From an uncultured Candidatus Saccharibacteria bacterium (GTDB lineage Bacteria > Patescibacteriota > Minisyncoccia > Phycocordibacterales > WO2-35-19): DNA of 64,000 bases. The notes beneath the pieces were generated by a model, which was not told the DNA's origin, ran no database searches, and saw only the letters and a list, made by a program, of their open reading frames with translations. Of the stretch, positions 440 through 61,474 are shown piece by piece; positions within the stretch are counted from its first letter, which is position 1; each line of letters begins with the position of its first letter. The stretch spans positions 1-64,000 of the forward strand of contig CAYMOW010000002.1 in NCBI GenBank assembly GCA_964392285.1, read 5' to 3'. The position numbers were made by a program, and so were the translations under genes.

Positions 440-1957
440 TTATACGCCAGTAATCTTTTCGATCGAAGCACCGATTGAGTTTAGTCGTTCGACCACATCT
501 TCATAACCGCGATTAATCGAATAGACATTGCGGAGGATAGAAACACCGGGCGCGGCGAGCATAGCAATAAGTATGATCATCGCCGGGCGAAGCGCCGGCG
601 GACAAACAAGTTGAGCCGGTTTGAGCGGTGTTGGCCCAGTCACAAAAACTCGGTGCGGGTCGGCAAGGGTGATATTTGCCCCCAACCGATTGAGCTCGGT
701 AAAATAAATCGCCCGATTCTCCCACATCCAATCGTGAATGAGCGTGGTACCCTCGGCTTGCGTAGCGATCGGCACAAAGAAAGGCAGATTGTCTGAGTTG
801 AGCCCAGGGTAAGGCAGCGGATGAATTTTGTCTCGCAGAGATTTGAGCTTAGACGGCAAGAGGCTTAGGTCGACCAATTTGGTTTTACCATTTTTGGCTA
901 AATATTCTTTAGAAGTTTTATATTTGAGACCCATCATCTTGAGCTTTAGCAGTTCGACCGCCAAGAAATCAATCGGACAGCGCAAAATTTTCAGACTAGA
1001 TTTGGTGGTAACCGCCGCCCCAATAAACATCATCGACTCAATCGGATCTTCGCTGTTGTAATACTCGACATTCTGATTTATCTCTTTGAGTCCGTGGACG
1101 CGCAGATTGGTCGTGCCGACACCTTCGATCTCCACTCCCAATTTCTGCAAAAAGAAACAAACTTCTTGGACCTGATAATTGGGCGGCGCAAAATGAATTT
1201 CAGTTACACCCGGCACCAAGGCCGCCATCATGATGGCATTGATCGCGGCTGTATCGCTCGCCTCATACATCACAATTTTAGCTTTGTGGATCTTTGTACT
1301 CGAAACCTCATAGCGCTTTTCGACCGTCTTGATCGAAACTCCAAACTCGGCCAAAGCCGAGCGATGAGCGCCGATAGTTCGTTCGCCCATCTTGCAACCA
1401 CCAGAATGAAGCAAGACAAACTTACCCAAATTGTGCACCAGCGCCGGCAAAAGCATCAAGCTTGAGCGGACATTGGCAACCGACGGGTGAAGCAGACCTT
1501 GCTTGTCAAACTTTTTGGGTGGCTCGATCTCGAGAGTTTGCTTGTCTTGCCACCTGACTTTGACGCCAAGGGCTGTGAGTATCTCGATCATTCGACTAAC
1601 CTCTTCGATCCTCGGAATACCGTGCAGTGTGGTTGTGCCTCGATTGAGAAGCGCGGCAGAGAGGAGCCCCATGGCGCCATTCTTGGAAGGGTTGGTAGTG
1701 ATCGAGCCATGAAGCTTCCGACCGCCCTCGATCCGAAAGTCGATCGAATCAGAGAGCGAAACAATCTTGTGTTCGAGCGCGTCGCCGATGCGCAAGAGTT
1801 CGCTCGCCGTCAGATTTTGCCGACCACTCTCAATTCGCGCAATGGTACTCTGAGCCGTATTGAGCCTCTTTGCGAGCTCTTCTTGAGTAAGGAGCCTCTT
1901 TTCACGCAATCTTTTGATAAATTCACCGATGGCTTTCTGGTTTTGATTGGTTTTCAT
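440..1957 (-). CDS. murA: UDP-N-acetylglucosamine 1-carboxyvinyltransferase MurA with an in-frame N-terminal XRE-type helix-turn-helix domain
   Basis: ORF 440..2230. The real start is most likely ATG at 1957 (MKTNQNQKAIGEFIKRLREKRLLTQEELAKRLNTAQSTIARIESGRQNLTASELLRIGDAL = classic XRE HTH). This is directly followed by the MurA core (KLHGSITTNPSKNGAMGLLSAALL, GGCKMGERTIGAHRSAL, C-terminal NRGYEDVVERL). The 91 codons upstream would overlap the murB start region. Confidence 0.8.
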   Translation of the reverse strand: MKTNQNQKAIGEFIKRLREKRLLTQEELAKRLNTAQSTIARIESGRQNLTASELLRIGDALEHKIVSLSDSIDFRIEGGRKLHGSITTNPSKNGAMGLLSAALLNRGTTTLHGIPRIEEVSRMIEILTALGVKVRWQDKQTLEIEPPKKFDKQGLLHPSVANVRSSLMLLPALVHNLGKFVLLHSGGCKMGERTIGAHRSALAEFGVSIKTVEKRYEVSSTKIHKAKIVMYEASDTAAINAIMMAALVPGVTEIHFAPPNYQVQEVCFFLQKLGVEIEGVGTTNLRVHGLKEINQNVEYYNSEDPIESMMFIGAAVTTKSSLKILRCPIDFLAVELLKLKMMGLKYKTSKEYLAKNGKTKLVDLSLLPSKLKSLRDKIHPLPYPGLNSDNLPFFVPIATQAEGTTLIHDWMWENRAIYFTELNRLGANITLADPHRVFVTGPTPLKPAQLVCPPALRPAMIILIAMLAAPGVSILRNVYSINRGYEDVVERLNSIGASIEKITGV

Positions 1958-1991
1958 ACTAGCAATATAGCATATGTGATATAATAAATAT

Positions 1992-3023
1992 ATGATGTAT
2001 GTGGAAAGCGAAGCTCTAATCCCCAACTCCTTTGCGCTAAAATCAAAGGCTAGGTTTTTGCTCCAAATTAAAACCAAAGCAGACGTTCTCGACGCCGACC
2101 GTTTGGCCAAAGAAAAGAAGTTGCCTCTCCTCACCTTGGGCTCAGGCACCAACGTAATCCTACCCGAATATATTGAGGCCATAGTCGCCCTAACCAAAAC
2201 AAAAGGCCTAAAAACAAAAGACCTCCACATCGAGGTTCAGGCTGGTGAGGAGTGGGACAGGGTGGTTGGGTTTGCAGTCGAGAATAATCTTTCGGGTCTT
2301 GAAGCACTTTCGTCTATCCCTGGCAAAGCTGGCTCAGCTCCAATCCAAAACATTGGCGCTTACGGCACAGAAATTGGAGACGCTCTTGTCTCCGTCGAAG
2401 CCTACGACACCTCAAAAAAAGATTTTGTGGTTATCAGAAAAAAGGATTGCGGTTTTAGCTATCGCGACAGCCTTTTCAAAAGAAACCCCAACCGATTTAT
2501 AATTACCTCGCTTATCCTAGAGCTCTCCAAAGAATCTCCAAGTATCCCCAATTACAAAGATGTCCAAAGTTATTTCGCCAAAAGGGAGAATCCAAAACCC
2601 AAACTCAAAGAAATACGGGAGGCGATTATAGAAATAAGACAAAACAAATTGCCCGATTATCACCAAATTCCCAACTGCGGCTCATTCTTCAAAAATCCAA
2701 TCATCGAAACCAAACTGGCCCAAAAAATAAAACAAGACTTCCCCGACCTGCCAATATATACCCCAAACCTCCCAACGTCCGACGTTGGGAGATCGAAAAC
2801 TTCAAACAAAGTCAAAATTCCGGCTGGCTACCTAATCGAAAAAGCTGGTCTCAAAGGCGCAAACATAGACAACATAGTCGTTTATGAGCGCAACGCTCTT
2901 GTCCTCACTAACCCCTTTGGTGCTTCCTTTGCCAACCTAGTGTCAGCCAAAAACAAAATCCAAAAAATTGTCTTCCAAAAATTCGGTGTCCTGCTCGAGC
3001 CGGAAGTAAATATAAGAATATAA
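1992..3023 (+). CDS. murB: UDP-N-acetylenolpyruvoylglucosamine reductase MurB
   Basis: FAD-binding-domain motifs LGSGTNVI and the MurB C-terminal signature NCGSFFKNP; divergent from murA with a 34-bp shared intergenic region. Confidence 0.85.
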   Translation: MMYVESEALIPNSFALKSKARFLLQIKTKADVLDADRLAKEKKLPLLTLGSGTNVILPEYIEAIVALTKTKGLKTKDLHIEVQAGEEWDRVVGFAVENNLSGLEALSSIPGKAGSAPIQNIGAYGTEIGDALVSVEAYDTSKKDFVVIRKKDCGFSYRDSLFKRNPNRFIITSLILELSKESPSIPNYKDVQSYFAKRENPKPKLKEIREAIIEIRQNKLPDYHQIPNCGSFFKNPIIETKLAQKIKQDFPDLPIYTPNLPTSDVGRSKTSNKVKIPAGYLIEKAGLKGANIDNIVVYERNALVLTNPFGASFANLVSAKNKIQKIVFQKFGVLLEPEVNIRI

Positions 3024-13205: not shown

Positions 13206-14252
13206 ATGGCTAGCGCACCACCAATTGAACTTCAAGAAGGGGCAGTGCCCAGACCAAGATATCAACTCTTCACTGATTGCCCCCAAGATTGGTTCTTGGT
13301 GGTCGTACGTGGGGGGGACATTCACAAGATCGTCCATTCTGTAAAAGGGTGGCGAGTAAACGAAGAGTTTGAGTTCGTAACAGAAGATGCTACGAACAAA
13401 AACTTGATCACCCCTCTTCGAGCCCTGACAGGCTACGAATTTGTGGGTGTCCCGGGTTTCCAGGGGCTAAAAGTAATAAAGTTCGCCTGGAATAAATACT
13501 GGCGAACAGATGAAAACAGTCCAATCTACGGGGTGGTCGCTCACGACCCACAACTCGTTTATGTGTTCCCGTTCGAATCTCAATACCCTCTTACGTACGA
13601 AGGAATTGATACGGTGGCACAAAACCGAATAAAACCGGAAGAGTTGTCGCTCGTAGCGGTAACTTTTGTGGTCACGGTCCGAGTCAGGATGCTACGACCA
13701 CGGATCGCACTCGCTACAAACATCGATTGGTTCGGGGGGGTGCTTATTCCAAAACTCCAAGGAGTCCTGAAGGATTTCGCTGGAGAGAAAAGTTACGACG
13801 AACTGATTCGGGGGGCAAGGAAGACGGTTACGCAAGAACTCGAAGAGTTTGTGATGGGGACCAACCAGACCCCTAGTAAATTTCGGGAGAAAATTCTTCA
13901 AACGGCAGGAGTCGACATCATCGACTTTAGCCTAGTAGACATCAAACCCAACAAGGCCTTCGAAGACGCCCAAAATGAATTGGCTTCCGAACAACGAAAG
14001 GCCTCCGGGGTCATCGTCACAGCCGAAGCGGCCAAACAAGCCAAGATCCTGGAGGGAGAAGGACTGGAAGCATACGAAGCCGCGATAGGTAGGGGTAAGG
14101 CAACCGCGATAAAAGCCATCCGTGAAGCTGCGGGTTCCGACTCAGAGACCTACTTCAAGTGGGACGGGATGAAAAGTTCGAAACTGGGTACCTACGCGGA
14201 AGGTACCAGCAAGGCTAGCATCCTGGTCGGCCCTGACGGCAGACCTATCTAG
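13206..14252 (+). CDS. SPFH/band-7 (stomatin-prohibitin-flotillin-HflK/C-like) domain protein, no TM segment
   Basis: Strong RBS AGGGAGG. The C-terminal half matches the band-7 pattern (GVDIIDFSLVDIKPNKAFEDAQNELASEQRKASGVIVTAEAAKQAKILEGEGLEAYEAAIGRGKAT); the N-terminal roughly 150 aa are unique. Confidence 0.55.
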   Translation: MASAPPIELQEGAVPRPRYQLFTDCPQDWFLVVVRGGDIHKIVHSVKGWRVNEEFEFVTEDATNKNLITPLRALTGYEFVGVPGFQGLKVIKFAWNKYWRTDENSPIYGVVAHDPQLVYVFPFESQYPLTYEGIDTVAQNRIKPEELSLVAVTFVVTVRVRMLRPRIALATNIDWFGGVLIPKLQGVLKDFAGEKSYDELIRGARKTVTQELEEFVMGTNQTPSKFREKILQTAGVDIIDFSLVDIKPNKAFEDAQNELASEQRKASGVIVTAEAAKQAKILEGEGLEAYEAAIGRGKATAIKAIREAAGSDSETYFKWDGMKSSKLGTYAEGTSKASILVGPDGRPI

Positions 14253-14378
14253 CCAAACTTCTGACTACAACCCCTTTTGGAGAACTTACCAGTTCCAACC
14301 AAAAGGGGTTGCTTTTTTTATAGAATATGATATAATTGCCCACAGAATTGTAATCCGAAAATTGAAGGGAGGAAGAAA

Positions 14379-15509
14379 ATGCTTTGGATGATATTGGTAT
14401 GGACAGTGGCCATAATCCTAGCGATTGGGGCCAAGATTTTACTGCCACCCGTTATCGGGTGGCGCAACAAACTCATCACGACTAGGCAGGCGTGGCAAAT
14501 CCCAATAGTGGTGGCCGGTTGTGTATCCGTAATACGGGTGATCGCTCACCTGATCGGGTCACAATGGCAAACAATCTGGTGGATAGTAGGTTTAGTAGTC
14601 GTTGGATATCCGATTTATCGCATCATACGACGCGAAAAGGTTTCGAACCTCGCCCAAAGGTATAAGACAGACCTTACAATAGTGGGCGTCTCGACCTTTA
14701 CAGTGGTCGCCGCCAACTGCCTGCTATACTTTGTTACCAGTGCCGATCCAAGAATTTGGGCTTGGTACTATGGCAATGCGTATTTCTTCTGGGCATGGAA
14801 CTTTGGCTGGATCGTAGTGGCTTTCCTCCATTCCAAAAGAGACGACAAGAACATCGTGATTCCGATCGCGGTTACGGGCCGTAATTGGATTATGGTGATT
14901 TTGATTGCAGGACTCCTGATAAATTATGTGTTTTATCCTTCTTTACCGAGATGGGTCAACACATTGACTACCAGCGGTCTGGGTAATCTCGGCACCAACT
15001 TCGGTCAGCCTGACCTGCTCCGGTTAACGCCGGAGGAGCACAAGGCGACACACACAGCGTTGATGAAAACTCCGTTCGCGGAGCGGAAGGTGCTCTGGGC
15101 CCTCTACGAGTGCAACCCAGAAAACAAGGCCTTTCGTCCCAAGGATGGGGACCTTCCTGCCCTCAAGACCTACCAGTCAAAAGGCGCACAAGCCTTCGGC
15201 GATGCCTGTGTCGAGAAATTGACGCGGGCACGGCAAACGTTTGTCCTCGCCGTGGTGGAGGCCACGAGCGAGAAGTGGAGCGATCCAGTAATTTTACCGG
15301 AAGCGCTCTTGTACGAGATTGTGTACTCCTCCGAAGAGAGGAGACACAGGACCACAGTCCTGGGGCCCGATGATGGCCAGCAAATGGAGCTGGCCGAAGG
15401 ATACACGGTCCCGCCCTTCAAAACAGTCGGGGCCAAGTTCAAGTCCAAGGCCGGGACGGTGCGTGTCACCGTCGAATACCGGCCAACGAAAGGAGCGAGC
15501 TCGCAATGA
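14379..15509 (+). CDS. polytopic membrane protein (about 6 TM) with a C-terminal soluble domain, hypothetical
   Basis: Strong RBS GAAGGGAGG. Trp-rich hydrophobic N-terminal 200 aa followed by a charged, roughly 170-aa tail. Same strand as the SPFH gene, 126 nt downstream of it. Confidence 0.6.
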   Translation: MLWMILVWTVAIILAIGAKILLPPVIGWRNKLITTRQAWQIPIVVAGCVSVIRVIAHLIGSQWQTIWWIVGLVVVGYPIYRIIRREKVSNLAQRYKTDLTIVGVSTFTVVAANCLLYFVTSADPRIWAWYYGNAYFFWAWNFGWIVVAFLHSKRDDKNIVIPIAVTGRNWIMVILIAGLLINYVFYPSLPRWVNTLTTSGLGNLGTNFGQPDLLRLTPEEHKATHTALMKTPFAERKVLWALYECNPENKAFRPKDGDLPALKTYQSKGAQAFGDACVEKLTRARQTFVLAVVEATSEKWSDPVILPEALLYEIVYSSEERRHRTTVLGPDDGQQMELAEGYTVPPFKTVGAKFKSKAGTVRVTVEYRPTKGASSQ

Positions 15510-15553: not shown

Positions 15554-15823
15554 TTACGACTCGCCGAAGAATGATGGCACAGGAATACCGAAGGTGTTTA
15601 GCACCAAACGCAAGATGCCGTAGACGCTAAACATTACAAACATCCCAATGATACCGTAGAACACATTCATCTTCTTCTTTTCCAAATCCGAACCATCGGC
15701 TCCAGCTATGAGCCCGATAATGCCGTAAAAGAAGAATATAGTCGCCACCACAAAACCCAGAACGATAATCGGATTGATGATGTAGGTGGCTATTTTGCCG
15801 AGCAGGTTCGTAACAGCTGGCAT
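15554..15823 (-). CDS. small two-TM membrane protein, paralog 1 of a seven-member family (VirB2/TrbC-pilin-like?)
   Basis: Helix-charged loop-helix architecture: FFFYGIIGLIAGADGSDLEKKKMNVFYGIIGMFVMFSVYGIL. Confidence 0.65.
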   Translation of the reverse strand: MPAVTNLLGKIATYIINPIIVLGFVVATIFFFYGIIGLIAGADGSDLEKKKMNVFYGIIGMFVMFSVYGILRLVLNTFGIPVPSFFGES

Positions 15824-15826
15824 GTC

Positions 15827-16177
15827 TTATCTTGGAACAAGTTGACGAACATTAAAACCAGGACCCGTACCTGTGTCAATTCCCAAAGCATCACCGAGGA
15901 ATGCTACCAAACCCCAGACAGCAGCCATGACAAAGATGGCCACAACGCCCCAGATCATGGTCTTCTTGGCCTGATCTGCTTTGTGTTCGCCACCAAAGAT
16001 ATACATAGCCAAGCCCCAGAAGAAGAAGAGCATTGCCAAGGCAAAGATGATTGGGATCAGGATATTTATGATATCACCAATCGATTCTGCCAAGCTTTTG
16101 ACATTATTAAGCTCCTGACCAAAAGCCAAAACTGGCGAAGCCAGAGCAACTATTCCGAATGAAATTAATTTTTTCAT
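15827..16177 (-). CDS. small secreted two-TM protein, paralog 2 (signal peptide + pilin-like core)
   Basis: MKKLISFGIVALASPVLAFGQ signal peptide, then core FFWGLAMYIFGGEHKADQAKKTMIWGVVAIFVMAAVWGLVAF. Confidence 0.7.
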   Translation of the reverse strand: MKKLISFGIVALASPVLAFGQELNNVKSLAESIGDIINILIPIIFALAMLFFFWGLAMYIFGGEHKADQAKKTMIWGVVAIFVMAAVWGLVAFLGDALGIDTGTGPGFNVRQLVPR

Positions 16178-16286
16178 TATTTTGTTTTTAATAATTTATT
16201 TAATAACCAAACGACCTAATAATTGAATACATTATAACACTTTCATCCATCTTTTCCAAACTAATTATGTTAATTATGTTTAGATT

Positions 16287-16634
16287 CTAGTAATTTATTC
16301 TTGGCATATTAATGGTATTGCGTTCATCAATACCCAATTCTTGCCTAAAGAACCTCACAAGACCCCAAACAGAAGATATCACAAAGAGCGCAACGACACC
16401 CCAAACCATCACATTTTTCCCCTCTGCTTTGCCATCACCCTCAGATTTGATGTACTTGGCCACACCCCAGAAGAAATAAAGCAAAGCCAAAGTGAAAGCT
16501 ATCGGAATCAAATAAGCACCTACTATGTTATCAACACTGCTTATTATTCTTTCTGTCCCTTGTAAAGCCTGCGCACCTACCACCGTCGGTAAAACTAACA
16601 AAGCCGGCACAATAGAATATTTGAAAAATTTCAT
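16287..16634 (-). CDS. small secreted two-TM protein, paralog 3
   Basis: Signal peptide MKFFKYSIVPALLVLPTVVGAQA, core YFFWGVAKYIKSEGDGKAEGKNVMVWGVVALFVISSVWGLVRF. Confidence 0.7.
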   Translation of the reverse strand: MKFFKYSIVPALLVLPTVVGAQALQGTERIISSVDNIVGAYLIPIAFTLALLYFFWGVAKYIKSEGDGKAEGKNVMVWGVVALFVISSVWGLVRFFRQELGIDERNTINMPRINY

Positions 16635-16649
16635 ATAATTATAAATTTA

Positions 16650-16952
16650 TTAATTATTTTTAACTTCTACTTTGATTGGAATGTTGGAAAGGCCGAGTTC
16701 GCTTCGGATAAAGGCCACAATACCCCAGACCGAAAAGGCCACAAAGAGTCCGATGATACCCGAAACCATAATCCGCCTACCCTCTTCGGCCGCCTTGTCG
16801 CTACTTGCGCCCTCCTTGATATATTTTGCCACACCCCAAAAGAAATACAACAAGCAAAGTGAAAAAGCCAGTGGTATGAGTATGCTGTTCACTATGCCGA
16901 ATGCTGAATCTATGAGGTCGCCAAGTTTCATCCCGTTAGTGAAAAATGGCAT
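16650..16952 (-). CDS. small two-TM protein, paralog 4
   Basis: Core YFFWGVAKYIKEGASSDKAAEEGRRIMVSGIIGLFVAFSVWGIVAFI; about 85% identity to paralog 3 in the core. Confidence 0.7.
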   Translation of the reverse strand: MPFFTNGMKLGDLIDSAFGIVNSILIPLAFSLCLLYFFWGVAKYIKEGASSDKAAEEGRRIMVSGIIGLFVAFSVWGIVAFIRSELGLSNIPIKVEVKNN

Positions 16953-17087
16953 TGCTTTTTTGAAAAGCCACCATTTTATTTTTTAGTTTGTAATTCATAT
17001 AAATATCGACTTAATATATTATAACTCGATTGAAAAAGCTTTTCTATGCCATTTTCTACTACGGGATTCATATTACAATTTTCAATC

Positions 17088-17369
17088 TTAAATCTTAAAA
17101 TTGATTTGCGGTATGCCGACCGGACTGTTCCAACCAAACTCTGAGCGCAAAAAGACCATAATGCCCCAGATAGTCGTCAGCACAAAGAGACCGATTATAC
17201 CCCAGATGAGCAGGTTTTTGCTCTCTTTGAGCTCCTTCTCATTGCCCGCAGCTCGAATAAACCGCCCCACTCCAAGCACAAAGACCAAAAAGGCCACCAC
17301 GCCCAAAAACGGAATAATCTTCATTCCGAGGTCGGTGAACATCTTTACTACTTCGCCAAGGTTTTTCAT
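17088..17369 (-). CDS. small two-TM protein, paralog 5
   Basis: Core VFVLGVGRFIRAAGNEKELKESKNLLIWGIIGLFVLTTIWGIMVF. Confidence 0.65.
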   Translation of the reverse strand: MKNLGEVVKMFTDLGMKIIPFLGVVAFLVFVLGVGRFIRAAGNEKELKESKNLLIWGIIGLFVLTTIWGIMVFLRSEFGWNSPVGIPQINFKI

Positions 17370-17381
17370 AATTTGTCTTTT

Positions 17382-17795
17382 TTATGAGCGCAATTGGTCT
17401 ATCGTGCCACCTATCGCTTCAGATATAACCCAAGCACCGAGGAGTATAGCTGCCCCGATCACTCCATAAAGCAAGGTGTCGTGGGCTGTTTTGATTTTAC
17501 CCGTATCGCCTCTTGCTGTGACATAAAGAAAGCCCGCATACATTATAACCAAAACAGCAATTACTCCGCCTATAGGTATCAGTATTTCGTTTATAACCGT
17601 CTTTATAAAGTCCATCAGATTATCGCCACCCTTGAATGGATTGTCTATTTTTATATTGAATTTGACTGGACTTGGAGCCGGAGTAACCTGTGGACTTGGG
17701 GCTGGAGTAATTTGTGCCCACAAAACCACTGGAACAAAGGCAGAAAATATAACCACAACAACAAAAAGATTTTTGAATAAATTTTTGATCTTCAT
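17382..17795 (-). CDS. small secreted two-TM protein, paralog 6 (Pro/Thr-rich linker)
   Basis: Signal/TM MKIKNLFKNLFVVVVIFSAFVPVVLWA, the repeat PAPSPQVTPAPSP, and core YAGFLYVTARGDTGKIKTAHDTLLYGVIGAAILLGAWVISEAIGG. Confidence 0.65.
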   Translation of the reverse strand: MKIKNLFKNLFVVVVIFSAFVPVVLWAQITPAPSPQVTPAPSPVKFNIKIDNPFKGGDNLMDFIKTVINEILIPIGGVIAVLVIMYAGFLYVTARGDTGKIKTAHDTLLYGVIGAAILLGAWVISEAIGGTIDQLRS

Positions 17796-18199
17796 TTGTT
17801 TATTATATTAGTATAATCGCCTTTGAAAAGTGCACCAACGATGGCTTCGGTTACGAGCCAGGCCGAAAGTATGATGGCGAGTCCGATGCCAACTTTTTTC
17901 ATCATTGCAATCGATTCGCTTCTTTTGCCTGAATTGTCCGGATTGAGCATCATATTCAAGCCAGCCCAAGCAAAGACTCCAGCCGAAACCGGCACGGCAT
18001 ACTTGATCAGCTCTCTGATAATATTGTTTATAAGGGTTACAAAATCATCAAAACCACATTCCTGGTTCAGCCCGCCCGAATTGTTGCGCTGGCCACATTC
18101 GGGGATAATGCCACCTCTATTGGTCTGTGCCAGAGCCTGGCTTGGCACAAGCACCAAGAGCATAAGACAGACGAATAGTATTTTGGTTGAAGTTTTCAT
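17792..18199 (-). CDS. small secreted two-TM protein, paralog 7
   Basis: Signal peptide MKTSTKILFVCLMLLVLVPSQALA, core WAGLNMMLNPDNSGKRSESIAMMKKVGIGLAIILSAWLVTEAIVG; its stop overlaps the start of paralog 6 by 4 nt. Confidence 0.65.
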   Translation of the reverse strand: MKTSTKILFVCLMLLVLVPSQALAQTNRGGIIPECGQRNNSGGLNQECGFDDFVTLINNIIRELIKYAVPVSAGVFAWAGLNMMLNPDNSGKRSESIAMMKKVGIGLAIILSAWLVTEAIVGALFKGDYTNIINK

Positions 18200-18208: not shown

Positions 18209-19516
18209 TTAATCGGCGACAACGTCGTAGATATTGTATTTGCCAAGCAGGGCCTCGAGCTCCCGGCTGGCACGAGTAATCGCTTCCGAAACTCTGGCTC
18301 GCCCGCTTGTTACTGACTCAATCATAGCACGGAAGACTGCTTCGCTTTCTTTGGGTTCCGGATCAAGCCAAGCTCTGGCTCGGATAGCGCTATCATAAAA
18401 GACACTCCTGTAAGCATCGGTCTGTCTTTGGGCTAGAAGATCGCGGCGCACCGGTGGCAGACCAAAAACCTGGCTCCAGGGTTCGGCCCCTTCGGTCGCT
18501 AAAGTATAGGCCACGTTGTAAGCCGAATTAATATTGGCTGAAGCCTTGGTGATAGCTAACCCCAAAAAGTCGCCGTAGACGAAGAAATCGCCAGCCTCGC
18601 GCGAGGTCGGCACCTTAGCTACATCAAAATTGAGATTGGGGTTGCGATACTGTAGTCCGGTAAGTTCGCTCGCAAGACCAAAGTAAAGAGCCAGATCACC
18701 ACCCAAAAAATAATTGTAAGAAAGAGGTAGAGAGCGGTTCCAAGAATAAGTTGGTTTGGCCGGATTGCTAAATTCGGTATAAAAGTTGATCGAGGCTTCG
18801 GCTGGAATGATCGGCTTGTCGAATCGATAGTCAAAAACACTGGCCACCTTGTTGCCCTGCCAAGCGGTAATCGGCGTCCCAGCCTGCATGGCTAAGGTCG
18901 AGATGATGGCCTTGGCGTGAGAAATGTTTGCATACTCGCCAAAGCTAACCACACTTCGTTGGATATTGAGCGCGCCATCTTTTTGAGAAATTAGACCTGC
19001 GAGAGTATAAAACTCGTCCCAATATTTTGGTGGTTCGGTAATGCGGGTTTGGTTGAAAATGTTGCGATTCCAATACATCACTAGCGGGTCAACCACAACC
19101 GGCAAAGCCAGAACGCCCTTGGGAGTAGTAAATATTTCTGCACCTTCAATAAAACTGTCTTTGAATTGGCGTGAAGTCAAAACCGAATAAGGCACCTCGA
19201 AGATCTTGTTGCGGTGCTTCATAATTTTGTTCGAGGGCAAAAGAAAGAGGTCGGGTCCATTACCCGAGGCCAAAGCTTCGACAAACTCAGCATCAAACTC
19301 GTCGGCGTTGATTTCTTTGTAAGAAACCTCGATCGTTTCGCTGTCTTTGAGCGAAGTGGCATCAAGCACATTGGCAAAAAGGTCGGAGCGCAGACTGCCC
19401 CAAACCACAACCGTAACTTTGTCTTGCGAAGCACCTTTATAAGCGGAAAAGATAATCAGTCCGATTACAATAAAGGCTCCAAAGACACCGGTCAAAATAA
19501 GCTGAAATTTACTCAT
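18209..19516 (-). CDS. membrane-anchored extracellular solute-binding-protein-like (SBP family 1-like) protein
   Basis: N-terminal TM helix, then TVVVWGSL...EALASGNGPDLFLL, reminiscent of the sugar-type ABC substrate-binding-protein signature (AxxSGxxPDV). Confidence 0.45.
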   Translation of the reverse strand: MSKFQLILTGVFGAFIVIGLIIFSAYKGASQDKVTVVVWGSLRSDLFANVLDATSLKDSETIEVSYKEINADEFDAEFVEALASGNGPDLFLLPSNKIMKHRNKIFEVPYSVLTSRQFKDSFIEGAEIFTTPKGVLALPVVVDPLVMYWNRNIFNQTRITEPPKYWDEFYTLAGLISQKDGALNIQRSVVSFGEYANISHAKAIISTLAMQAGTPITAWQGNKVASVFDYRFDKPIIPAEASINFYTEFSNPAKPTYSWNRSLPLSYNYFLGGDLALYFGLASELTGLQYRNPNLNFDVAKVPTSREAGDFFVYGDFLGLAITKASANINSAYNVAYTLATEGAEPWSQVFGLPPVRRDLLAQRQTDAYRSVFYDSAIRARAWLDPEPKESEAVFRAMIESVTSGRARVSEAITRASRELEALLGKYNIYDVVAD

Positions 19517-23242: not shown

Positions 23243-25105
23243 TTATTTAGTTAAATATTCTATGTTGTATTTTATAAGATCATAAGCTTCTATTGTTATT
23301 GCTTTCTTTTTCAGGAGCAACTGCAATTCAGTCATAAAAAGCTTCACCAAAATTTTATTAACCTTTTTGTCAAAAACCTCTACTCTCTTTAATTTTACTG
23401 AACCATCAGGAAGTTTTTCTTTGACTACCTCTATTTTCTTATTGAATTTGATAGCACCATTAACTTGTTTTATCAGACTATCACGCACCTTTTTATCTTT
23501 AATCCAACCAAGATCGAAAGATTTGTTTATATCTCTTATCAGAGTTTCAAGGGTTATTTCTTCAACATCACTCTCCGGCAACGTGATTTTTGGTTCGCCA
23601 ATTTCTGCCGTCGGTTCACTTGCAATATAATCAACCACTACTTCATATTCAACCTTTTCTCCTTCAACAATATCTTTTTTCACAGTTTCGATCTTGTCTG
23701 TATCAGAATCAGATAACGCTACCGCCATATGATATTTACCATCAGAAGTTCCGACTAGTTCCACCTTGTAATCTCCCGCCAACCCATTAGGAATAATTAT
23801 CATTTTCAACCCCTCAGGATTACTTTCTCCTGTATAAATAGCTCCAGGTATACTATTGGTGTTTTTGGTTATAACTCTGCCTTGCGGATCTGTAATTTTG
23901 ACTTCAACCGGTGAAGCAAACCAAAAAGAAGTCAGATTATCTGGTTCTGGCGGTGGCACATAAGCAACGGATGGTTGTGGTAAAGAAAGAGTGGAGAAGA
24001 TATCGGAAATGGCTTTGGTCGGCAAATCACCGTGTTTCGAATCTACCTCAATGTGTTTTAGGAATTCACTGGGATTTAATTGGGCGTAAGCAGTCGGTAA
24101 AATTTTTGCAAACAATCTTTGCCAAAAATTCTGCATCAGAACTGGTGGAAATATGTCAATCCCACCAAAAGACGCACTGAGAGCCAGTACTCTATTATCA
24201 CCTTCGGTCGTATCTCTGATTGGGGTAATTGGCTCTGGTACTCCATCTACCCAAAGTTTAGTTTCCGAAGCACTCCTTGGGACAATCGGGATACTTTCTA
24301 TTGTGTCTTGACCTTTACCTGCAACTGTCAGAATGCCTCCGACATTTTGTAACTGCATTGTTGAACTATTAAGATTTAGGTTCTCTAGAAAATAATTCCT
24401 GCCTTGTTGAAGATTCTCATATGAGATCAATTCCCCATTCTCATCTTTAAGAAAATTATATAGCGGTAAAAGTTCCCCTATTGATGGAATAAAGCTGTGG
24501 ATGGTGTCGTAACTATCAGCAGTCTGAGCGGTCGCGGTGGTCATATACCAAAGATACAACCCCACCCCAGCCCGTGTTAGTTTATCCCAATTCTCTGGCA
24601 CAACACCACCTTCCCATAATACATAAACTTCAGAGCTACCCCAATTTGGAGTACCTAATAAAATAAGCTTGTTCACATCGTTCCTGTAATTATGACTTTG
24701 GATGTAACGCCTAGTCACCAAACCACCCATAGAGTGAGCGATTATATTCACTTTGCCAGTCGGAGAATTAGCAAGAGCCTTATCTATTGTTGGTATAAGA
24801 TAATCGGTAGCAGAATTTATATTGCTCTGCCTCCAATCATAAAAAGCAATGAAAAGTGTTTTGTCTTTTTCATAACCCGCTTTCTCTAGGGCATCGATCA
24901 TATTATCCCAGGTTTTATCAGATGGAAAGAAATCCCAACTCCCGCTACCATTCCTCTGTAGCATCACTTCCCAATTCCAAGACCCCATAATCCCGGGCAC
25001 TATGACTATTGGTTCTTTTGCTTCTTGAGCAAAAACTTGTTGACAAGGGTTAAATACAAAACTTGTCAAAAACAATAAAATTACAACCTTATGAAATATA
25101 TTCAT
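23243..25105 (-). CDS. secreted alpha/beta-hydrolase lipase/esterase with a C-terminal extension
   Basis: Signal peptide, IVIVPGIMGSW, and the GxSxG nucleophile elbow IIAHSMGGLV. The C-terminal 250 aa are Lys/Glu-rich. The region is AT-rich. Confidence 0.65.
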   Translation of the reverse strand: MNIFHKVVILLFLTSFVFNPCQQVFAQEAKEPIVIVPGIMGSWNWEVMLQRNGSGSWDFFPSDKTWDNMIDALEKAGYEKDKTLFIAFYDWRQSNINSATDYLIPTIDKALANSPTGKVNIIAHSMGGLVTRRYIQSHNYRNDVNKLILLGTPNWGSSEVYVLWEGGVVPENWDKLTRAGVGLYLWYMTTATAQTADSYDTIHSFIPSIGELLPLYNFLKDENGELISYENLQQGRNYFLENLNLNSSTMQLQNVGGILTVAGKGQDTIESIPIVPRSASETKLWVDGVPEPITPIRDTTEGDNRVLALSASFGGIDIFPPVLMQNFWQRLFAKILPTAYAQLNPSEFLKHIEVDSKHGDLPTKAISDIFSTLSLPQPSVAYVPPPEPDNLTSFWFASPVEVKITDPQGRVITKNTNSIPGAIYTGESNPEGLKMIIIPNGLAGDYKVELVGTSDGKYHMAVALSDSDTDKIETVKKDIVEGEKVEYEVVVDYIASEPTAEIGEPKITLPESDVEEITLETLIRDINKSFDLGWIKDKKVRDSLIKQVNGAIKFNKKIEVVKEKLPDGSVKLKRVEVFDKKVNKILVKLFMTELQLLLKKKAITIEAYDLIKYNIEYLTK

Positions 25106-25120
25106 TGTAAATTTTAATAA

Positions 25121-25603
25121 TTATAATATTTTTCCAGACGCATATCCCAAACCAAGTACCATAACGAAAAAGAAAATTGCCACAAAAACAGCCAGCAAAA
25201 TAAGTGCAACAACCAAAGAAATTACGAAATTCTTTAAGGTAAATTTACCGTGCTTTAGAACTATGTAGCAATAAAAAACCAACACTGACCAACCTAAAAC
25301 TGATATCGGTATCAAATCAAACACCTTGTTTTCTATAACACTTTGCAGATTATAACCATTTGAAAAATAATTATGAGTCAGTTCTGTTGCAGACCAAAAT
25401 CCAAACCAAGCACAAACCACAAAAGTCACAAGAGATGTTAGATAGGCTAGGATTACCTGCCACCAAGAGATTGATAATTTTCTTTTCCATTTTCTAAATC
25501 CTAAGTATGCAAAAGGTAAAAAAATAAAAAATGCTGATAGCAAGAAAAATACCCACTCGATAACGAGTATCAATGTAGGCCCCGCCCTAAAATAGGTTTC
25601 CAT
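25121..25603 (-). CDS. hypothetical membrane protein (about 4 TM)
   Basis: Hydrophobic ORF, AT-rich, no recognisable domain. Confidence 0.45.
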   Translation of the reverse strand: METYFRAGPTLILVIEWVFFLLSAFFIFLPFAYLGFRKWKRKLSISWWQVILAYLTSLVTFVVCAWFGFWSATELTHNYFSNGYNLQSVIENKVFDLIPISVLGWSVLVFYCYIVLKHGKFTLKNFVISLVVALILLAVFVAIFFFVMVLGLGYASGKIL

Positions 25604-25666
25604 TTGAGGTTATACACTTATGGTAGCACAACGACTTGATTCGTTTTACAAGCTTATCCACATAAT

Positions 25667-26761
25667 TTATTCAGCACAGATAACATAATGCAGATATTCT
25701 GTCGTCTTGCTTGCTGTATAATTCCTGTTTTCTGATTTATCAGCCCTAAAACGACTATGCTCTTTTGTAAAACATCCATATTTACCCCGGAGACTCATTA
25801 TTTCTCTTATATCATCGGGGGTCATCAAACCTTCATTGTTATAACTCAAAAATATATATTTGACTTTGGCCTTCAATATCAAATCTTTAAACGATTTTCT
25901 GACCTGGTTTTTTGAACAATACAAAGATTTCTGATCAGTATAATCTCGTAGACCAGTCTTCCCATATATTTTAGGATTATCATACCTAGCAATTGTCTCT
26001 AAAATATGATAATTCGTTGCATATTGACGATGATTATATGGTGGGTCAAGATATAAAACATCTCCGTTAATTTTTTCGACGATTTTATTTATATCCATAT
26101 TGAAAATTTCGTGATCTTGTTCATTAACAATCAATTCTGCTGGTTTCAAGATCAGACTACTTTGAGCTGTCTTTTTTAGATTCTTCAGGAAAGCTCCGTA
26201 GACGGATGCTGTGTTCGCATATTTATCAATCGATTCGACTAAACTAGCGATCAAAAAATAATATTCATCATCAGAGATTAAATCTTTCTCTTTCCAATTT
26301 TCAATTTTTTGACGAATAGCGTCGCACCGCATTCCATTTTCATTTGAAAAATATTGTCTTGATTCTTCTTTGTCTTTGGTTTCTCCGAGACAATAATTTT
26401 TATAGATAAAGCCTTTTACACCCTCCAAATTTGATAGATATTCACAAACAAAATCTTTACGTTTTTCTGTGTCAATATTTTTTAGACCAGCAATTTCTTT
26501 TGTTAGTTTTATAAATTTTAATTCCTTATGATTCCCAACATAGTGCCTATTCAATACATAACTGTAATATTGAATATCGTTAGAAATTATTTTGTAACCT
26601 CTTTTCTTGAAATAACTACCGACAACTCCAGTTCCAGCAAATAAGTCACAAAAAACCTTGCAGTTTTTATCAACTACTTTATTAATTGATTCTTCCAAGA
26701 ATTCTAACAAAGATAGTTTACTGCCGATATAATTCATAAATTCATGATAACATACCCGCAA
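25667..26761 (-). CDS. Dam-family (alpha-class, D12) N6-adenine DNA methyltransferase
   Basis: N-terminal NYIGSKLSLLEFL and FCDLFAGTGVVG (motif I); C-terminal LYLDPPYN (motif IV DPPY). Confidence 0.8.
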   Translation of the reverse strand: MRVCYHEFMNYIGSKLSLLEFLEESINKVVDKNCKVFCDLFAGTGVVGSYFKKRGYKIISNDIQYYSYVLNRHYVGNHKELKFIKLTKEIAGLKNIDTEKRKDFVCEYLSNLEGVKGFIYKNYCLGETKDKEESRQYFSNENGMRCDAIRQKIENWKEKDLISDDEYYFLIASLVESIDKYANTASVYGAFLKNLKKTAQSSLILKPAELIVNEQDHEIFNMDINKIVEKINGDVLYLDPPYNHRQYATNYHILETIARYDNPKIYGKTGLRDYTDQKSLYCSKNQVRKSFKDLILKAKVKYIFLSYNNEGLMTPDDIREIMSLRGKYGCFTKEHSRFRADKSENRNYTASKTTEYLHYVICAE

Positions 26762-26799
26762 TAAAATCTATACGAAAACATAGGCTTTTGTGGTAGTAT

Positions 26800-27549
26800 T
26801 TGCCTATGTTAAAAAACGACTTAAATAATGAACGAATTGGCGTCTCTGCTGAAATTTCAATTGCAGATATTTTTGAAATTCCTATCAGTGACAACTATCG
26901 AAATCGCGGAGCACAAGATATTACAAACACCATCAAACCTATCATTGCCGATATCTTCAACTTAAATAATATTCCTCCACCAATCAAACATGTTGCGGAA
27001 AATCAAAATACTATAGATTTTATACTTGAAGGCAATAAAACTTTATCCGTAAAAACAAATAAACAAAAATTGGGCAAAGCTGCACCACAAAAAATTGGCC
27101 AGGCATCATCAAACACTTGGTTTGCGATTTTAGCAGAACGATTAGGTATAGCATATATACCGACAGCTTATCCTGAAAAAGTCAAACTTTTTAAAATAAT
27201 TGCACTAACAAGGATCGAGGAACTACTTTTTATTTACTGGGAATACATGTTCGATTGCGATTTTTTGATCCATATTTTCAATATCGTTGATTCTAATAAC
27301 AACCTTACTCGTGATCCGAAATACATAGTAACTAAGAAAACCAGTAGCCCTATTTGGGATCCTGCAAAAATTACATTTACAAGGCCAACTGTATCCGAGT
27401 GGAATGAGAGCAATACTGTAAAATACGAATACGATGGTGTGGCAATAGGTGAATTTCAAGTCCACAACAATAGGGACAATTTTAAATTTCGTTTCAATAT
27501 GGCCGGTATTTTCAAGTTAATGACAGAAGGTCGTCTCAGTTTTTCTTAA
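26800..27549 (+). CDS. putative type II restriction endonuclease (hypothetical, sits between two methyltransferases)
   Basis: 249-aa ORF with no recognisable family. It is divergent from the Dam-like MTase and convergent with the second MTase; AT-rich. Confidence 0.4.
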   Translation: MPMLKNDLNNERIGVSAEISIADIFEIPISDNYRNRGAQDITNTIKPIIADIFNLNNIPPPIKHVAENQNTIDFILEGNKTLSVKTNKQKLGKAAPQKIGQASSNTWFAILAERLGIAYIPTAYPEKVKLFKIIALTRIEELLFIYWEYMFDCDFLIHIFNIVDSNNNLTRDPKYIVTKKTSSPIWDPAKITFTRPTVSEWNESNTVKYEYDGVAIGEFQVHNNRDNFKFRFNMAGIFKLMTEGRLSFS

Positions 27550-28321
27550 AAACCATTATGTATTCGTGTTTGAATATATAATAATCACTTGATAACGCGC
27601 GGTATCTCCAAATTCCTTCTTTATTCTGTTTGCCACGATTACCAACCATATTCTTTATTATAATACTTTTCAGAATTAGACCTAGTTTTTGAGCCTCATT
27701 CATACAATAAAAACCCAATGGTACCCACTTCCCCATTTTATATGCATCACCAATAACAATCGCCAAATATCTACCATTTTCCAAAACATCTATTGTATTC
27801 TTTAAAACTTCAGCAAATTTTCCTAAAAACTCTTTCAAGGATTTTGCGTTTGATAAATCATCTTTTAAGTCACTAAACTTTATAATATCCGCATATGGTG
27901 GGTGCAATATGGCCATTTGCACATTTTTCTTTTTGTGTTTTTCTAAAATATCTTTTACTTTTTCAAAAGTTTGGATTTTTGTGCTGTCACCTATAATTAG
28001 CTCAGAAAAATTACCTTTCGCATCAATATTCTCACTGACATAATCAACGAGTTTTTTCTGTATATCGATCCCAATAAAATTCCTGTTTAGACTCTCTGCC
28101 TCATAAGCAGTGGTTCCACTTCCTAAAAATGGGTCCAGGATTGTTTCGTTCTTTTTTGTGTACCTAGATATTAACTGGTGAGGAATTTGTGGAACAAAAT
28201 TCCCATGGTAAAAACCGCTATGTTTTCCTGACTTGTCTCTTTCTGAAATAATCCAGAGACTATCCGTCCAAATTTCTGATTCTTTCCACTTACTTAAATC
28301 AAGATCATTAAAAATTGGCAT
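27536..28321 (-). CDS. DNA methyltransferase, N4/N6 amino-MTase (PF01555-like)
   Basis: HGNFVPQIPHQLISRY (motif X-like), ILDPFLGSGTT (motif I), ILHPPYADI (motif IV-like). The table ORF extends to 28441, but those 40 extra codons read through tRNA-Glu; ATG at 28321 (MPIFNDL) is used instead. Confidence 0.7.
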   Translation of the reverse strand: MPIFNDLDLSKWKESEIWTDSLWIISERDKSGKHSGFYHGNFVPQIPHQLISRYTKKNETILDPFLGSGTTAYEAESLNRNFIGIDIQKKLVDYVSENIDAKGNFSELIIGDSTKIQTFEKVKDILEKHKKKNVQMAILHPPYADIIKFSDLKDDLSNAKSLKEFLGKFAEVLKNTIDVLENGRYLAIVIGDAYKMGKWVPLGFYCMNEAQKLGLILKSIIIKNMVGNRGKQNKEGIWRYRALSSDYYIFKHEYIMVFKKN

Positions 28322-28332
28322 CTTAATATTTG

Positions 28333-28406
28333 TGACGCTACCGGGATTTGAACCCGGGTACCAAGCTTGAAAAGCTTGTGTCCTAACCAGACTAGACGAT
28401 AGCGCC
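28333..28406 (-). tRNA. tRNA-Glu (TTC)
   Basis: Reverse complement GGCGCTATCGTCTAGTCTGGTTAGGACACAAGC-TTTTCAA-GCTTGGTACCCGGGTTCAAATCCCGGTAGCGTCA. Confidence 0.8.
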
Positions 28407-28500
28407 TTTCGACTCGCTTTGCTCGCTTCAAGGCAAGCCAAGGAGAGAGTAATAGTAACATATTTTGATAAAAAGGCAAAAAATGATAGGCTGTAATTAG

Positions 28501-29785: not shown

Positions 29786-32700
29786 TTAATTTTGATCAGC
29801 TTCCTCGATCACAAGCTCGCCTTCCGGAAGATCGGTTGGTTTCTTGCTCACGCCAGGCATAGCAACAACCGGTGAAGCTTGGTCTTTGTTGGCCAGACCA
29901 GCAGCCAAGAGAGCTGCGGCCACAGCACTAGCTTGCTTGCGCTTGCAGATCGCCGAGAAAATCAAGAACATTATAGCGAGCAAGATAAGGAAGAGTAGAC
30001 CGAAGACGATAGCCGTATCGCGAGGCGAACTGAAGAGAGTGATGGCGACATTTCGCAAAATAGATGTATCCGATTCGTCGCGATCCTCTTTGGCCAAATC
30101 AACGACCACACCAGCAACAGAACCTAGAGTGCTTGTTGCCTCGGCCGAACCAGAGACTAGAGTCGTAGTAGAAAATGTTCCACTTCTACCCACAGAACCA
30201 CCAAAACTTGATGTGTCTATTTCAACTCCACGAGATCTGAGATTTTCAAGAAGCGCTCGGAAAGCATTGATCTCATTTTGTTCTTCAGAAGTCACAGGGA
30301 AAAGAGAGCGACAGAATATTTCGTTGATCTTCTTTTTGGTCAAGATATAAACGAAGCCAGTCGGTGCATCATGACCCCAAGGTTCAAGAATATCGGCGAA
30401 GTATTTATTTTGGAATCTCGAAACAGCATCAAAGGTTGCTTGATCAAAATTCGAGTTCAAGGACAAATTTTCTTGTTCAAAGACATTTAGGAATGTTTTT
30501 AGTTTGAGCATTTCCGTTGGGTCATTGTTCCAACCCATCTTGAGGTGATCGCGCAAGTAGAAGCAGGTAGTTGCTCCAAGGATTTCACCTTGAGGACGTC
30601 GGCGACTACCGCCAAGCGATGAGCCACCACCTCCACCACCGCCGCCACCACCGCCACCAGTGTTCACTGTAATGGTTGTAGTTGCGCTAGCGCTGCCCCC
30701 AGCACCAGTACAAGAAATACTGTACTCGGTTGTAGAACCCGGAGTTACAGAAGCTGTGCCTGAGGTTGAGGTTGCGCTCGTCCAAGCTGCGCTACAAGAA
30801 GTTGCGTTGGTAGAACTCCAAGATAGAGTCGAGGAATTGCCTTTATCGATCGTTGAAGGATTGCCAGTCAAAGTCACAGTCGGCTTTGGATCAGGATTGG
30901 AGATCGGGTTTACAATTATTGTGGTTGTCGAAGTTGCATTACCACCTGATCCGGTACAGGTGATTGAATAAGTTGTAGTTGTAGCTGGAGAAAGTATTGC
31001 ACTACCAGAAGTTGAGGTGGCACTAGTCCAAGCCGCACTACAAGAATTTGTATTATTTGAAGTCCAAGAAAGAGTTGTTGTAGCCCCAATGGTGATAGTC
31101 GAAGGATTGCCAGTCAAATTTACTGAAGGTAGTAGTGGTCCACCGCCTTGTGGCTTGACGATAACTGTCCTTGTGGTTGAAGCACTAAGTCCACCCGAGT
31201 CGGTCACGGTGTAAGTAAGAGTATAAGTACCAGTTGTCGAAGCGTTGACACTGCCGGTTTTTACAATAACAGAAGTCAAATTGCCATCTTCAAGATCGTT
31301 TGCAGTTGCGCCCGGGTCAGTAAAGACATTGCCCACAATTATTTCAATTGGGTTTGCACCAACCAAAGTGATAGTTGGTGGGGTGTTGACCGGAGCGGTA
31401 GTACAAGGCAATTCAATCGAATCGATGGTAAAGTCAATACCATTTCTCGATGTTGCATCGATAAGCAAACTTATTGCGCCGACATTGCTCATATTGGCAC
31501 CACTACCAAGGAATGGCGTAAAGCTACTGAATGGCACACTGCCATTAAGGACAGTGTTACTAGCACCATAAAGCTCAAGGACAGCTTGAGAAGCATTATT
31601 GGCATCAGTATAGACTCTAAAGGTCAAAGTAACCTTTTTGTTGTCAACAAAATCTGCACTGTAAGTAAAGTTTATTCTATTTCTTTGACCGTTCAAGGAC
31701 AAATCTTTACCATTCAGACCTGTATAATTTATAACATTGGCATTAGTATCCTTGCCATCCCAAACCAGAAGAACAGTGCTTTTGGTATTAGCTCCGTTGG
31801 AAAGAGCAAAGGCACCAGAAGTCGTATCTGTAAAATCAGAGAAACTAGCTGAACCTATTCTGGTAATAGTATGAAATACATCGAGTTCGCCACCAAGACC
31901 CGAAGTGTCTACATAGTGCATCAATCTTGACGAACTAGGTGTCTCATAGGTTATGGCTTGATAGGCATTTGAGAAATGATCGACAACTAAAGGACATTGA
32001 CCACCGATCGGAGGCGGCACAACCGGATTACAACTATTGACCGTAACCTTTACAACCAAATCATTAAAATCATTGTCAGATTCAGATGAAGGTAAGTCTT
32101 CAAAACCAATCAAGAATACATTGTTGTCGATTTCATAAACCACAGCGTGATCCGTAGCGTCTTGGTTGTTAGCTATCTTGGTCGAATAGTATCTGCCACT
32201 ACCAGTGTTGATTACAAAAGCAATCTCTGAGTTGGCAGGCAGATCAAAATTTGCCGTTTGACCAACCGAAAGAGTTGGAGCAGATGAGTGGTCGGTATTG
32301 ACACCATTCTTAAAGACCGGAACAAAGGAACCAGATGAGGTGCTAAAACCGAAAGCCGAGTCTAGTACGGCATCGCGATGAATATATTCCACTGTAACCG
32401 AAGTCGTGGCTTGAGTATTCCAAATCTGAAACTGCTTCTGATCATTGATAACATTCAAACCATAACCTTTGGTGGTAATAACGTCTTGCAAAGACAATGG
32501 TCCAGTGCCTGGAACGACTGGTTCGACAGAACCATCACCCAAAGTACTCGGCAGAGCACAGGTGTGAGTAATAGTTTTTGGCACGACATTTACAACTCTA
32601 TTCACAGTAACCGAAGAACCCTTGGAATCAGCAACAGTGTAAGAGATAGTATAGGAGCCGGTGCTTGAAGCATTGACCGTGCCCGACTTTTGGATCTGAG

Positions 32701-47018: not shown

Positions 47019-47031
47019 AAAATTTATTCTA

Positions 47032-50396: not shown

Positions 50397-50443
50397 ATCT
50401 TATATTTTTTATTTTTCGTAGTTTTCGTATAATTTTAGTCTAT

Positions 50444-50707: not shown

Positions 50708-50845
50708 ATTTTTGAAAATTGAAAATTATAAATTGATAATTCTATACTATACCCCCCTAGGGTATTAGTCAAGTCAAACCAAAACCACTTCTGGGGATAA
50801 TCCAAAAGTGGTTTTGGCCGGTTTCGGCTTTGGTCGAACCAGAGA

Positions 50846-61364: not shown

Positions 61365-61474
61365 AGTGGTTTAATTTTCAATTTTTAATTTAGAATTTTC
61401 AACAAATGATTTAATTTAAAATTTATAAACATTGAAAATTTAATGAAAATTGATAATTGATAATTCTAAATTTC

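Follow-up and report, generated by a model that had tools for sequence, protein, structure and literature searches.

A tandem array of seven two-helix pilin-like genes

We examined seven consecutive minus-strand open reading frames (ORFs) at positions 15554-18199 of a 64,000-nucleotide stretch of contig CAYMOW010000002.1 (GenBank assembly GCA_964392285.1), referred to here as the window. They encode small proteins of 89-137 amino acids (aa), named p1 to p7 by rising coordinate, so that p7 is the first gene in the direction of transcription and p1 the last (Table 1). A sequence-only reading of this DNA had described the group as a tandem array of paralogous two-transmembrane proteins with a VirB2/TrbC-pilin-like core; the ORFs were found exactly where that reading had placed them, and comparison with family hidden Markov models (HMMs) bore out the family assignment. 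On sequence grounds, the window comes from the chromosome of a Zambryskibacteria-like bacterium of the class Paceibacteria (Patescibacteria, or candidate phyla radiation). It carries the housekeeping genes of a chromosome, for ClpB, initiation factor IF-2, GyrA, GroEL, valyl-tRNA synthetase, RNase J, CTP synthase, a release factor, and FtsEX, together with nine tRNAs and the RNase P RNA. A tblastn search of 72,556 plasmids returned no match for p6 or p2, and an HMM built from the seven paralogs found no further copy of the array in the window.

All seven proteins share, by hydropathy, two hydrophobic helices with a Lys/Glu-rich loop between them, the arrangement that had been described earlier with the core of p3 as its example. 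N-terminal signal-peptide-like segments with AxA-type ends were recognized by eye in p2, p3, p6, and p7, the same number as counted before, and not in p1, p4, and p5. The linker PAPSPQVTPAPSP, previously noted in one of the genes, is that of p6. The start of p6 overlaps the stop of p7 by 4 bp (ATGA) in this pair, described earlier as translationally coupled, and the following spacers along the array measure 12, 135, 15, 109, and 3 bp. An AlphaFold2 (AF2) model of p6 placed helices at residues 60-93 and 98-136, joined by a loop at 94-97, with a predicted local distance difference test (pLDDT) score of about 90 or higher. Foldseek matches included 8exh_A at 25% identity over 75 columns, which is not significant (E=4.9). 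A sequence-profile search of the PDB with the p6 ortholog alignment returned only 20-residue loop matches to designed 'Pizza' beta-propeller repeats, which we discarded as spurious.

In Pfam, all seven proteins matched PF18895 (T4SS_pilin; gathering score 26.6 bits) at E-values from 1e-10 to 8e-5, and six of them scored at or above the gathering score. The sole exception, p1 (23.0 bits), is tied to the others by its ortholog profile, which aligns to p2-p5 at hhalign probabilities of 97.9-98.7%. The threshold of PF04956 (TrbC/VirB2; gathering score 27.9 bits) was passed by p6 only, p7 and p3 fell below it, and p1, p2, p4, and p5 were unmatched. Sub-threshold matches to NCBIfam NF045849 were obtained for all seven (14-30 bits against a cutoff of 40; E from 2e-7 to 0.03). 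Moreover, the homologs of p6 (n=233) are publicly named 'pilin' or 'VirB2 component (pilin)'.

Pairwise identity among the paralogs ranges from 16 to 55%, with a mean of about 31%. The identity of about 85% that the sequence-only reading had given for p3 and p4 came down to 55% (42/76). The pair p6/p7, which it had called barely recognizable, is 30% identical, with ortholog profiles that hhalign joins at 98.7%; the weakest pairs are instead those of p7 with p1-p5, and hhalign connects all seven ortholog groups. Because every ORF matches the same Pfam family and the whole array is found again in over 30 further genomes, it is not a chance run of ORFs. These matches support the identification of p1-p7 as a tandem array of paralogous two-helix VirB2/TrbC-like pilins.

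Table 1. The pilin array, its leading gene, and an internal indel
Feature	Positions	Strand	Length	Description
p1	15554-15823	minus	89 aa	last and shortest pilin paralog; PF18895 23.0 bits
p2	15827-16177	minus	116 aa	signal peptide; PF18895 41.5 bits
p3	16287-16634	minus	115 aa	signal peptide; PF18895 26.6 bits; PF04956 13.9 bits
p4	16650-16952	minus	100 aa	no signal peptide in this genome; PF18895 31.6 bits
Palindromic indel	16932-17072	.	141 bp	in p5/p4 spacer; imperfect terminal inverted repeats of ~21 nt; predicted fold -35.5 kcal/mol
p5	17088-17369	minus	93 aa	short paralog without signal peptide; PF18895 31.4 bits
p6	17382-17795	minus	137 aa	signal peptide, Pro/Gly/Thr-rich linker, hairpin; PF18895 33.9 bits; PF04956 29.1 bits
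p7	17792-18199	minus	135 aa	signal peptide, two-Cys motif before helical hairpin; PF18895 32.8 bits; PF04956 25.6 bits
SBP-like gene	18209-19516	minus		MalE-like (family-1, oligosaccharide-type) solute-binding protein homolog, membrane-anchored; SBP_bac_8 39 bits

Conserved order and purifying selection across Paceibacteria

The array is preceded by a gene for a homolog of solute-binding proteins (SBPs), and with this gene as the anchor, we retrieved 36 species-level reference genomes. The relatives with informative names are Candidatus Zambryskibacteria, Taylorbacteria, and Paceibacterota, all of the class Paceibacteria. The SBP gene was followed by a pilin array in 31 of 31 related loci with enough downstream DNA, and one further contig ends after the first pilin. 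The arrays comprise 4-8 genes, mostly 6-8, with 4-5 in the most distant loci, and lie in a syntenic block with the order lactamase_B-gyrA-SBP-array-(convergent membrane protein + SPFH-like)-...-IF2. By best-hit assignment, the order p7-p6-p5-p4-p3-p2-p1 is kept in about 25 species-level genomes, and p1 is the terminal gene in all canonical arrays. Positional orthologs are 50-80% identical, against 16-55% for the paralogs.

Each position also has its own structural signature, which we followed in 17 aligned genomes. A signal peptide and a PxC...CG[YF] cysteine pair are present in p7 of all 17. In p6, the signal peptide and an IxIxNPFK motif are always kept around a variable low-complexity linker. 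The signal peptide is always present in p2 and p3 and never in p1; it occurs in 7 of 17 p4 sequences and is missing from 16 of 17 p5 sequences, whose orthologs are 55-73% identical. Pairwise comparisons gave median ratios of nonsynonymous to synonymous substitution (dN/dS) of 0.16-0.29 for orthologs of the array genes, with a maximum of 0.45, whereas the SBP gene gave 0.11; with dS close to saturation (about 1-2), these ratios are rough gene-wide averages. The fastest-evolving position is p3 (median ortholog identity 0.51, dN/dS 0.29), which with p7 forms the fastest pair, and variation gathers in the signal peptides, N-terminal linkers, and C-terminal tails. The fixed order of orthologs and the low dN/dS, therefore, indicate that the duplications are old and that each copy is under purifying selection. 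The repeated duplication under diversifying selection that had been suggested from the window alone is not supported.

This conservation also bears on the earlier alternative that the proteins are small pore-forming toxins, holins, or bacteriocin-like peptides. The features that p1-p7 share with such proteins are generic, namely small size and two hydrophobic helices, and one weak match of p1 to a PHROG 'membrane protein' (E=0.0018) points the same way. However, searches of Pfam, NCBIfam, PHROGs, and PADLOC returned no holin, bacteriocin, phage, or defence family, and no phage, lysis, immunity, or export genes lie near the array. Stable synteny near gyrA across the clade and purifying selection likewise speak against such products. 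We consider this explanation extremely improbable and, given the specific PF18895 and PF04956 matches, rejected the holin, toxin, and defence readings.

Relation to described pilin arrays

Arrays of this kind have been described before. In a search of 3,035 Patescibacteria genomes with PF18895 and PF04956, Quinonero-Coronel et al. 2025 (PMC12102498) recorded 441 VirB2 arrays, in which 2-11 pilin genes stand in tandem at a mean identity of 25% and a maximum of 54%. An array was defined there as 2-11 PF18895/PF04956 genes of low mutual identity, in tandem or with one non-pilin gene between them, and the window array, with seven adjacent genes at 16-55% identity in a member of the Patescibacteria, falls within this definition. 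It shares criteria and gene-number range with the published arrays, among them the 'Sec secreted array' of N. lyticus TM7x, and its divergence (mean about 31%, maximum 55%) is nearly identical to theirs. Fixed gene order and purifying selection are what the present analysis shows by comparison, for a clade of Paceibacteria. In the published survey, pilin genes lie near virB4 in 1135 of 1948 assemblies (58%), and of the 25 Zambryskibacteria assemblies in one part of the published Table S1, 22 have VirB4. Three genomes whose syntenic arrays we examined (L012, L024, and L026) are among these VirB4-positive assemblies. Part of the homologous array of TM7x is up-regulated in stable symbiosis.

The closest experimental information comes from Southlakia epibionticum ML1, in which Wang et al. 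2023 (PMC10633639) described a tandem of six PF18895 genes (SEML1_0014-0019), every one of them scored essential, beside VirB6-, PrgI-, and VirB4-like genes. The ML1 and window arrays are alike in being tandem, divergent, chromosomal PF18895 arrays of Patescibacteria (six versus seven genes, about 100-185 aa) with some PF04956 matches. In contrast, the ML1 array lies inside a cluster that encodes a type IV secretion system (T4SS) and lacks an SBP gene, whereas the window array is unlinked from T4SS genes, lies near gyrA, and is headed by an SBP gene. ML1 belongs to the class Saccharimonadia and the window to Paceibacteria, and essentiality has been shown for ML1 only. Epibiotic growth depended on the Patescibacteria T4SS in the single species examined; this T4SS is without a relaxase and has VirB2-like pilins, which is unusual for a monoderm (PMC10633639, PMC11665869, PMC12857230). 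It is described as an exception among monoderm T4SSs in PMC12857230, which suggests that it may build a pilus-like structure and speculates on such a pilus as a conduit; PMC11665869 calls its role completely unknown.

We further compared the array with two more distant groups of pilins. The VirB2/TrbC/TraA pilins of diderm bacteria (PF04956; for example, the Agrobacterium tumefaciens T-pilus, PDB 8EXH) likewise combine a signal peptide, two helices, and a short charged loop. However, only one of the seven window genes reaches the PF04956 threshold, the host is monoderm-like, no VirB3-B11 genes are adjacent, and there are seven paralogs rather than one major pilin. Mbov_0395 and MMCAP2_0565 of Mycoplasma integrative and conjugative elements (NF045849) are small two-helix pilin-like proteins of a T4SS in wall-less monoderms, and the window proteins match nearly the full 80-position model of this family. 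Unlike the window array, they are borne on integrative and conjugative elements, single-copy, and linked to conjugation.

Strain variation and spacers within the array

Close relatives of the window organism differ from it within the array. In L002, a roughly 99%-identical strain, p7-p5 are 99.6% and p4 97.9% identical to the window, and the p3 allele (L002 1384-1545) could not be aligned to the window p3 by blastn. Three independent short assemblies (L001, L002, and L039) end within or just after p5-p3. The p3 allele and the assembly breaks suggest population microdiversity at p5-p3. The palindromic indel in the p5/p4 spacer was absent by blastn from the near-identical strains L002 and L039, which have 24 bp in its place. 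The indel occurs once in the window and could represent a small MITE-like insertion (a miniature inverted-repeat transposable element). An upstream ATG within it adds seven codons to the p4 ORF. The p4 orthologs and the near-identical strains begin at MKLGDL, and the true p4 start, judged by this alignment, is probably 16931 (Met8).

Weak consensus matches to promoters were found in both long spacers, a sigma-70-like match inside the indel (17046 to 17018) and an extended -10 site in the 109-bp spacer before p2 (16259 to 16231). Terminator-like matches within the array were at chance level (8 against 5.0 +/- 2.5 expected). The G+C content of the array (16001-18000) is 0.40, against 0.47-0.51 in the flanks, despite the ancient synteny; this probably reflects an Ile/Phe/Lys-rich composition rather than recent transfer.

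Several of these observations would fit a variation repertoire, in which the paralogs are alternative major pilins, interchangeable or switched to match host strains or to evade recognition. Such a role has been proposed for the virB2 genes of Bartonella and Anaplasma and suggested for Patescibacteria too (PMC12102498), and it would accommodate the high divergence of the paralogs (16-55% identity), the p3 allele of L002, the three assemblies that break inside the array, and the promoter-like sites in both long internal spacers. The rapid evolution of p3 and p7, and the concentration of changes in N-terminal linkers and C-terminal tails, which would be surface-exposed, are also in line with it. 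The comparison with Bartonella and Anaplasma phagocytophilum (cited in PMC12102498) goes only part of the way. Both of these and the window have multiple divergent tandem virB2-like genes, in the former for a host-interaction T4SS, but those paralogs are thought to serve antigenic or host-range variation, whereas the window orthologs show stability from species to species and purifying selection. About 25 species-level genomes keep the same seven positional orthologs in one order, the opposite of fast birth-and-death; dN/dS is at or below 0.45 for every paralog, and structural features specific to array position are conserved. Furthermore, the six array genes of S. epibionticum are individually essential and so non-redundant. 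On this evidence, a variation repertoire appears unlikely.

A MalE-like gene at the head of the putative operon

The SBP-like gene had been placed downstream of the array; it is in fact upstream (5'), on the same strand, and ends 9 bp before p7, as the first gene of a putative operon. Its matches in a profile search of the PDB were sugar SBPs. An AF2 model of the protein (pLDDT 83, predicted template modelling score 0.82) showed an N-terminal transmembrane helix at residues 3-28 and a two-lobed MalE-like fold, which Foldseek matched in the PDB to oligosaccharide SBPs at E-values of about 1e-20. No BPD_transp_1 permease or sugar-type ATPase of the ATP-binding cassette (ABC) family is encoded in the window, where the sole ABC pair is FtsE/FtsX (60426-62188). 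The genes directly 3' of the SBP gene in the relatives are always pilins, and the linkage persists even where SBP identity drops to 34%, in genomes of Zambryskibacteria, Taylorbacteria, and Paceibacterota (the window and loci L003-L038). Among the best 120 of 2308 matches, the homologs of the SBP are same-clade orthologs only. As a separate observation, a second orphan SBP gene (40869-42617, plus strand), of the peptide/oligopeptide type (SBP_bac_5, 218 bits), also has no adjacent ABC permease or ATPase.

Fusions of several pilin units

A profile of the seven paralogs matched 48,385 cluster representatives. Among the best 150 of these, a set in which ranking by summed score favours multi-unit proteins, 117 carry 2 to 12 or more hairpin units in one chain, preceded by one signal peptide. 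Examples of such poly-pilins are P0241 (353 aa, 3 units), P0247 (820 aa, 8 units), and P0299 (1775 aa, 12 or more units), and one Candidatus Taylorbacteria genome has a true three-unit fusion (L034 10375-11403) within its syntenic array, which an SBP gene heads. The fusions argue that the units sit side by side. Neither they nor the invariant SBP head of the putative operon is mentioned in the available portions of the published accounts of T4SS arrays (PMC12102498, PMC10633639).

The SBP linkage and the fusions raise the question of whether the proteins instead form a T4SS-independent membrane channel, platform, or transporter-like complex with the co-transcribed MalE-like protein, for example for the uptake of host oligosaccharides, with 'pilin' as no more than a label of homology. 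The invariance of the linkage, with a 9-bp spacer in the window, is consistent with such a complex, as are the lack of a VirB4-sized ATPase within 10 kb of the arrays in this clade and an SBP fold that is intact and MalE-like yet has no permease or ATPase beside it. Three paralogs lack signal peptides, and chains with up to 12 or more hairpins have the look of a polytopic membrane protein. Nevertheless, in VirB2-type filaments such as the F- and T-pilus, both termini of the subunit face outward, so linked subunits could still pack into a filament. The family is homologous to TrbC/VirB2, and no SBP-dependent transporter made of two-helix subunits is known. In other Patescibacteria classes, members lie near virB4 in 58% of assemblies (PMC12102498), and those of S. 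epibionticum lie inside an essential T4SS cluster that has no SBP (PMC10633639). We consequently hold a T4SS-independent complex to be rather improbable.

Other features of the window

At the far side of the array, a gene for an SPFH/Band-7 protein (348 aa) and, downstream of it, one for a 376-aa polytopic membrane protein without a family match (13206-15509, plus strand) face the 3' end of the array in convergent orientation; the pair had been described as lying upstream. Equivalent, very divergent pairs hold the same position in related loci. We rejected the two genes as partners of the array, given that they are convergent, only positionally conserved, very divergent, and without a match to any T4SS family. 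They could form an SPFH/NfeD-like pair, and nothing evident connects them with the pilins.

Four further regions of the window were noted. The stretch 24000-28500 has a G+C content of 0.32-0.37, against about 0.47, and lies beside tRNA-Glu and tRNA-Ser. It encodes a Dam-like D12 N6-adenine methyltransferase (25667-26761) and an N4/N6 methylase (27536-28441), with two unannotated ORFs (25121-25603 and 26800-27549), and looks like a restriction-modification or horizontally acquired island. On the minus strand, 29786-33544 encodes a predicted surface protein of 1252 aa with DUF642, two bacterial Ig-like domains, and DUF4114, a candidate adhesin with partial homologs at the syntenic position in relatives. 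A 596-aa ORF (440-2230, minus strand) has an unusual architecture, an N-terminal HTH_3 (Cro/C1-type) domain fused to a full EPSP-synthase/MurA-type enolpyruvyl transferase domain, and adjoins MurB and a Mur ligase. Finally, minus-strand genes at 46611-51481 encode a cupredoxin-like protein, a DsbD_2 membrane protein with HMA, a heavy-metal P-type ATPase with HMA, and a DsbA-like thioredoxin. This group is a metal/redox envelope cluster, and its DsbA/DsbD pair may be relevant to the cysteine pair of p7.

A probable heteromeric pilus or conduit

We think it probable that p1-p7 are non-redundant subunits of one heteromeric, T4SS-dependent pilus or conduit. This interpretation draws on the age, fixed order, and individual conservation of the paralogs and on the individual essentiality of the six homologs in S. 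epibionticum. Each paralog would insert into the cytoplasmic membrane as a hairpin with both N and C termini outside and the positively charged Lys/Glu-rich loop inside. Four of them would enter by way of cleavable Sec signal peptides, and the other three would translocate short N-terminal tails without one. The resulting membrane pool would then be assembled by an MPF-FATA-like T4SS encoded elsewhere in the genome (VirB4, TrsD, PrgI/VirB3, and VirB6) into a pilus-like fibre or a short conduit at the contact with the host cell. The paralogs would act in this structure as a major subunit plus base, tip, or adaptor subunits and not as interchangeable variants.

A number of points weigh against a T4SS-dependent heteromeric structure. 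No VirB4, VirB6, VirD4, or relaxase is encoded anywhere in the 64-kb window, which extends what the sequence-only reading had reported for the immediate neighbourhood, and in over 30 relatives no VirB4-sized ATPase was found up to about 10 kb away from the array. Because no machinery is adjacent, the link to a T4SS in this lineage consists of the homology and of VirB4 elsewhere in related genomes. A signal peptide is absent from three of the seven paralogs, and fusions of 2 to 12 or more units are unusual for subunits that should be extracted one at a time. In S. epibionticum, polar effects could account for part of the essentiality that transposon sequencing assigned to upstream genes. Finally, no pilus made of these proteins has been reported in any member of the Patescibacteria (PMC11665869, PMC12857230).

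A bolder version of the same idea is that, in Zambryskibacteria and Taylorbacteria, the pilins and the MalE-like protein together form a heteromeric organelle of fixed composition, a VirB2-derived device for host contact or nutrient uptake rather than a homopolymeric conjugative pilus. Each of the seven hairpins would take a defined position in it, and the sugar-binding module would serve as a receptor or as the part that captures the substrate. The fusions, the strict order, the essentiality in S. epibionticum, the invariant SBP linkage, and the separation from virB4 leave room for this version, to which we give only a small chance.

The window array, then, belongs to a kind already described, and its separation from virB4, fixed order, coupling to an SBP gene, and relation to fusions are leads and not demonstrated mechanisms. 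For a VirB2-like heteromeric pilus or conduit, the ordered and individually conserved paralogs across this Paceibacteria clade favour distinct structural roles over a repertoire for variation. That the array can uncouple from virB4 and couple to an oligosaccharide-binding homolog provides a lead for the uptake function that has been speculated. The multi-unit fusions, in turn, predict which units are neighbours and could guide multimer modelling and searches by cryo-electron tomography.

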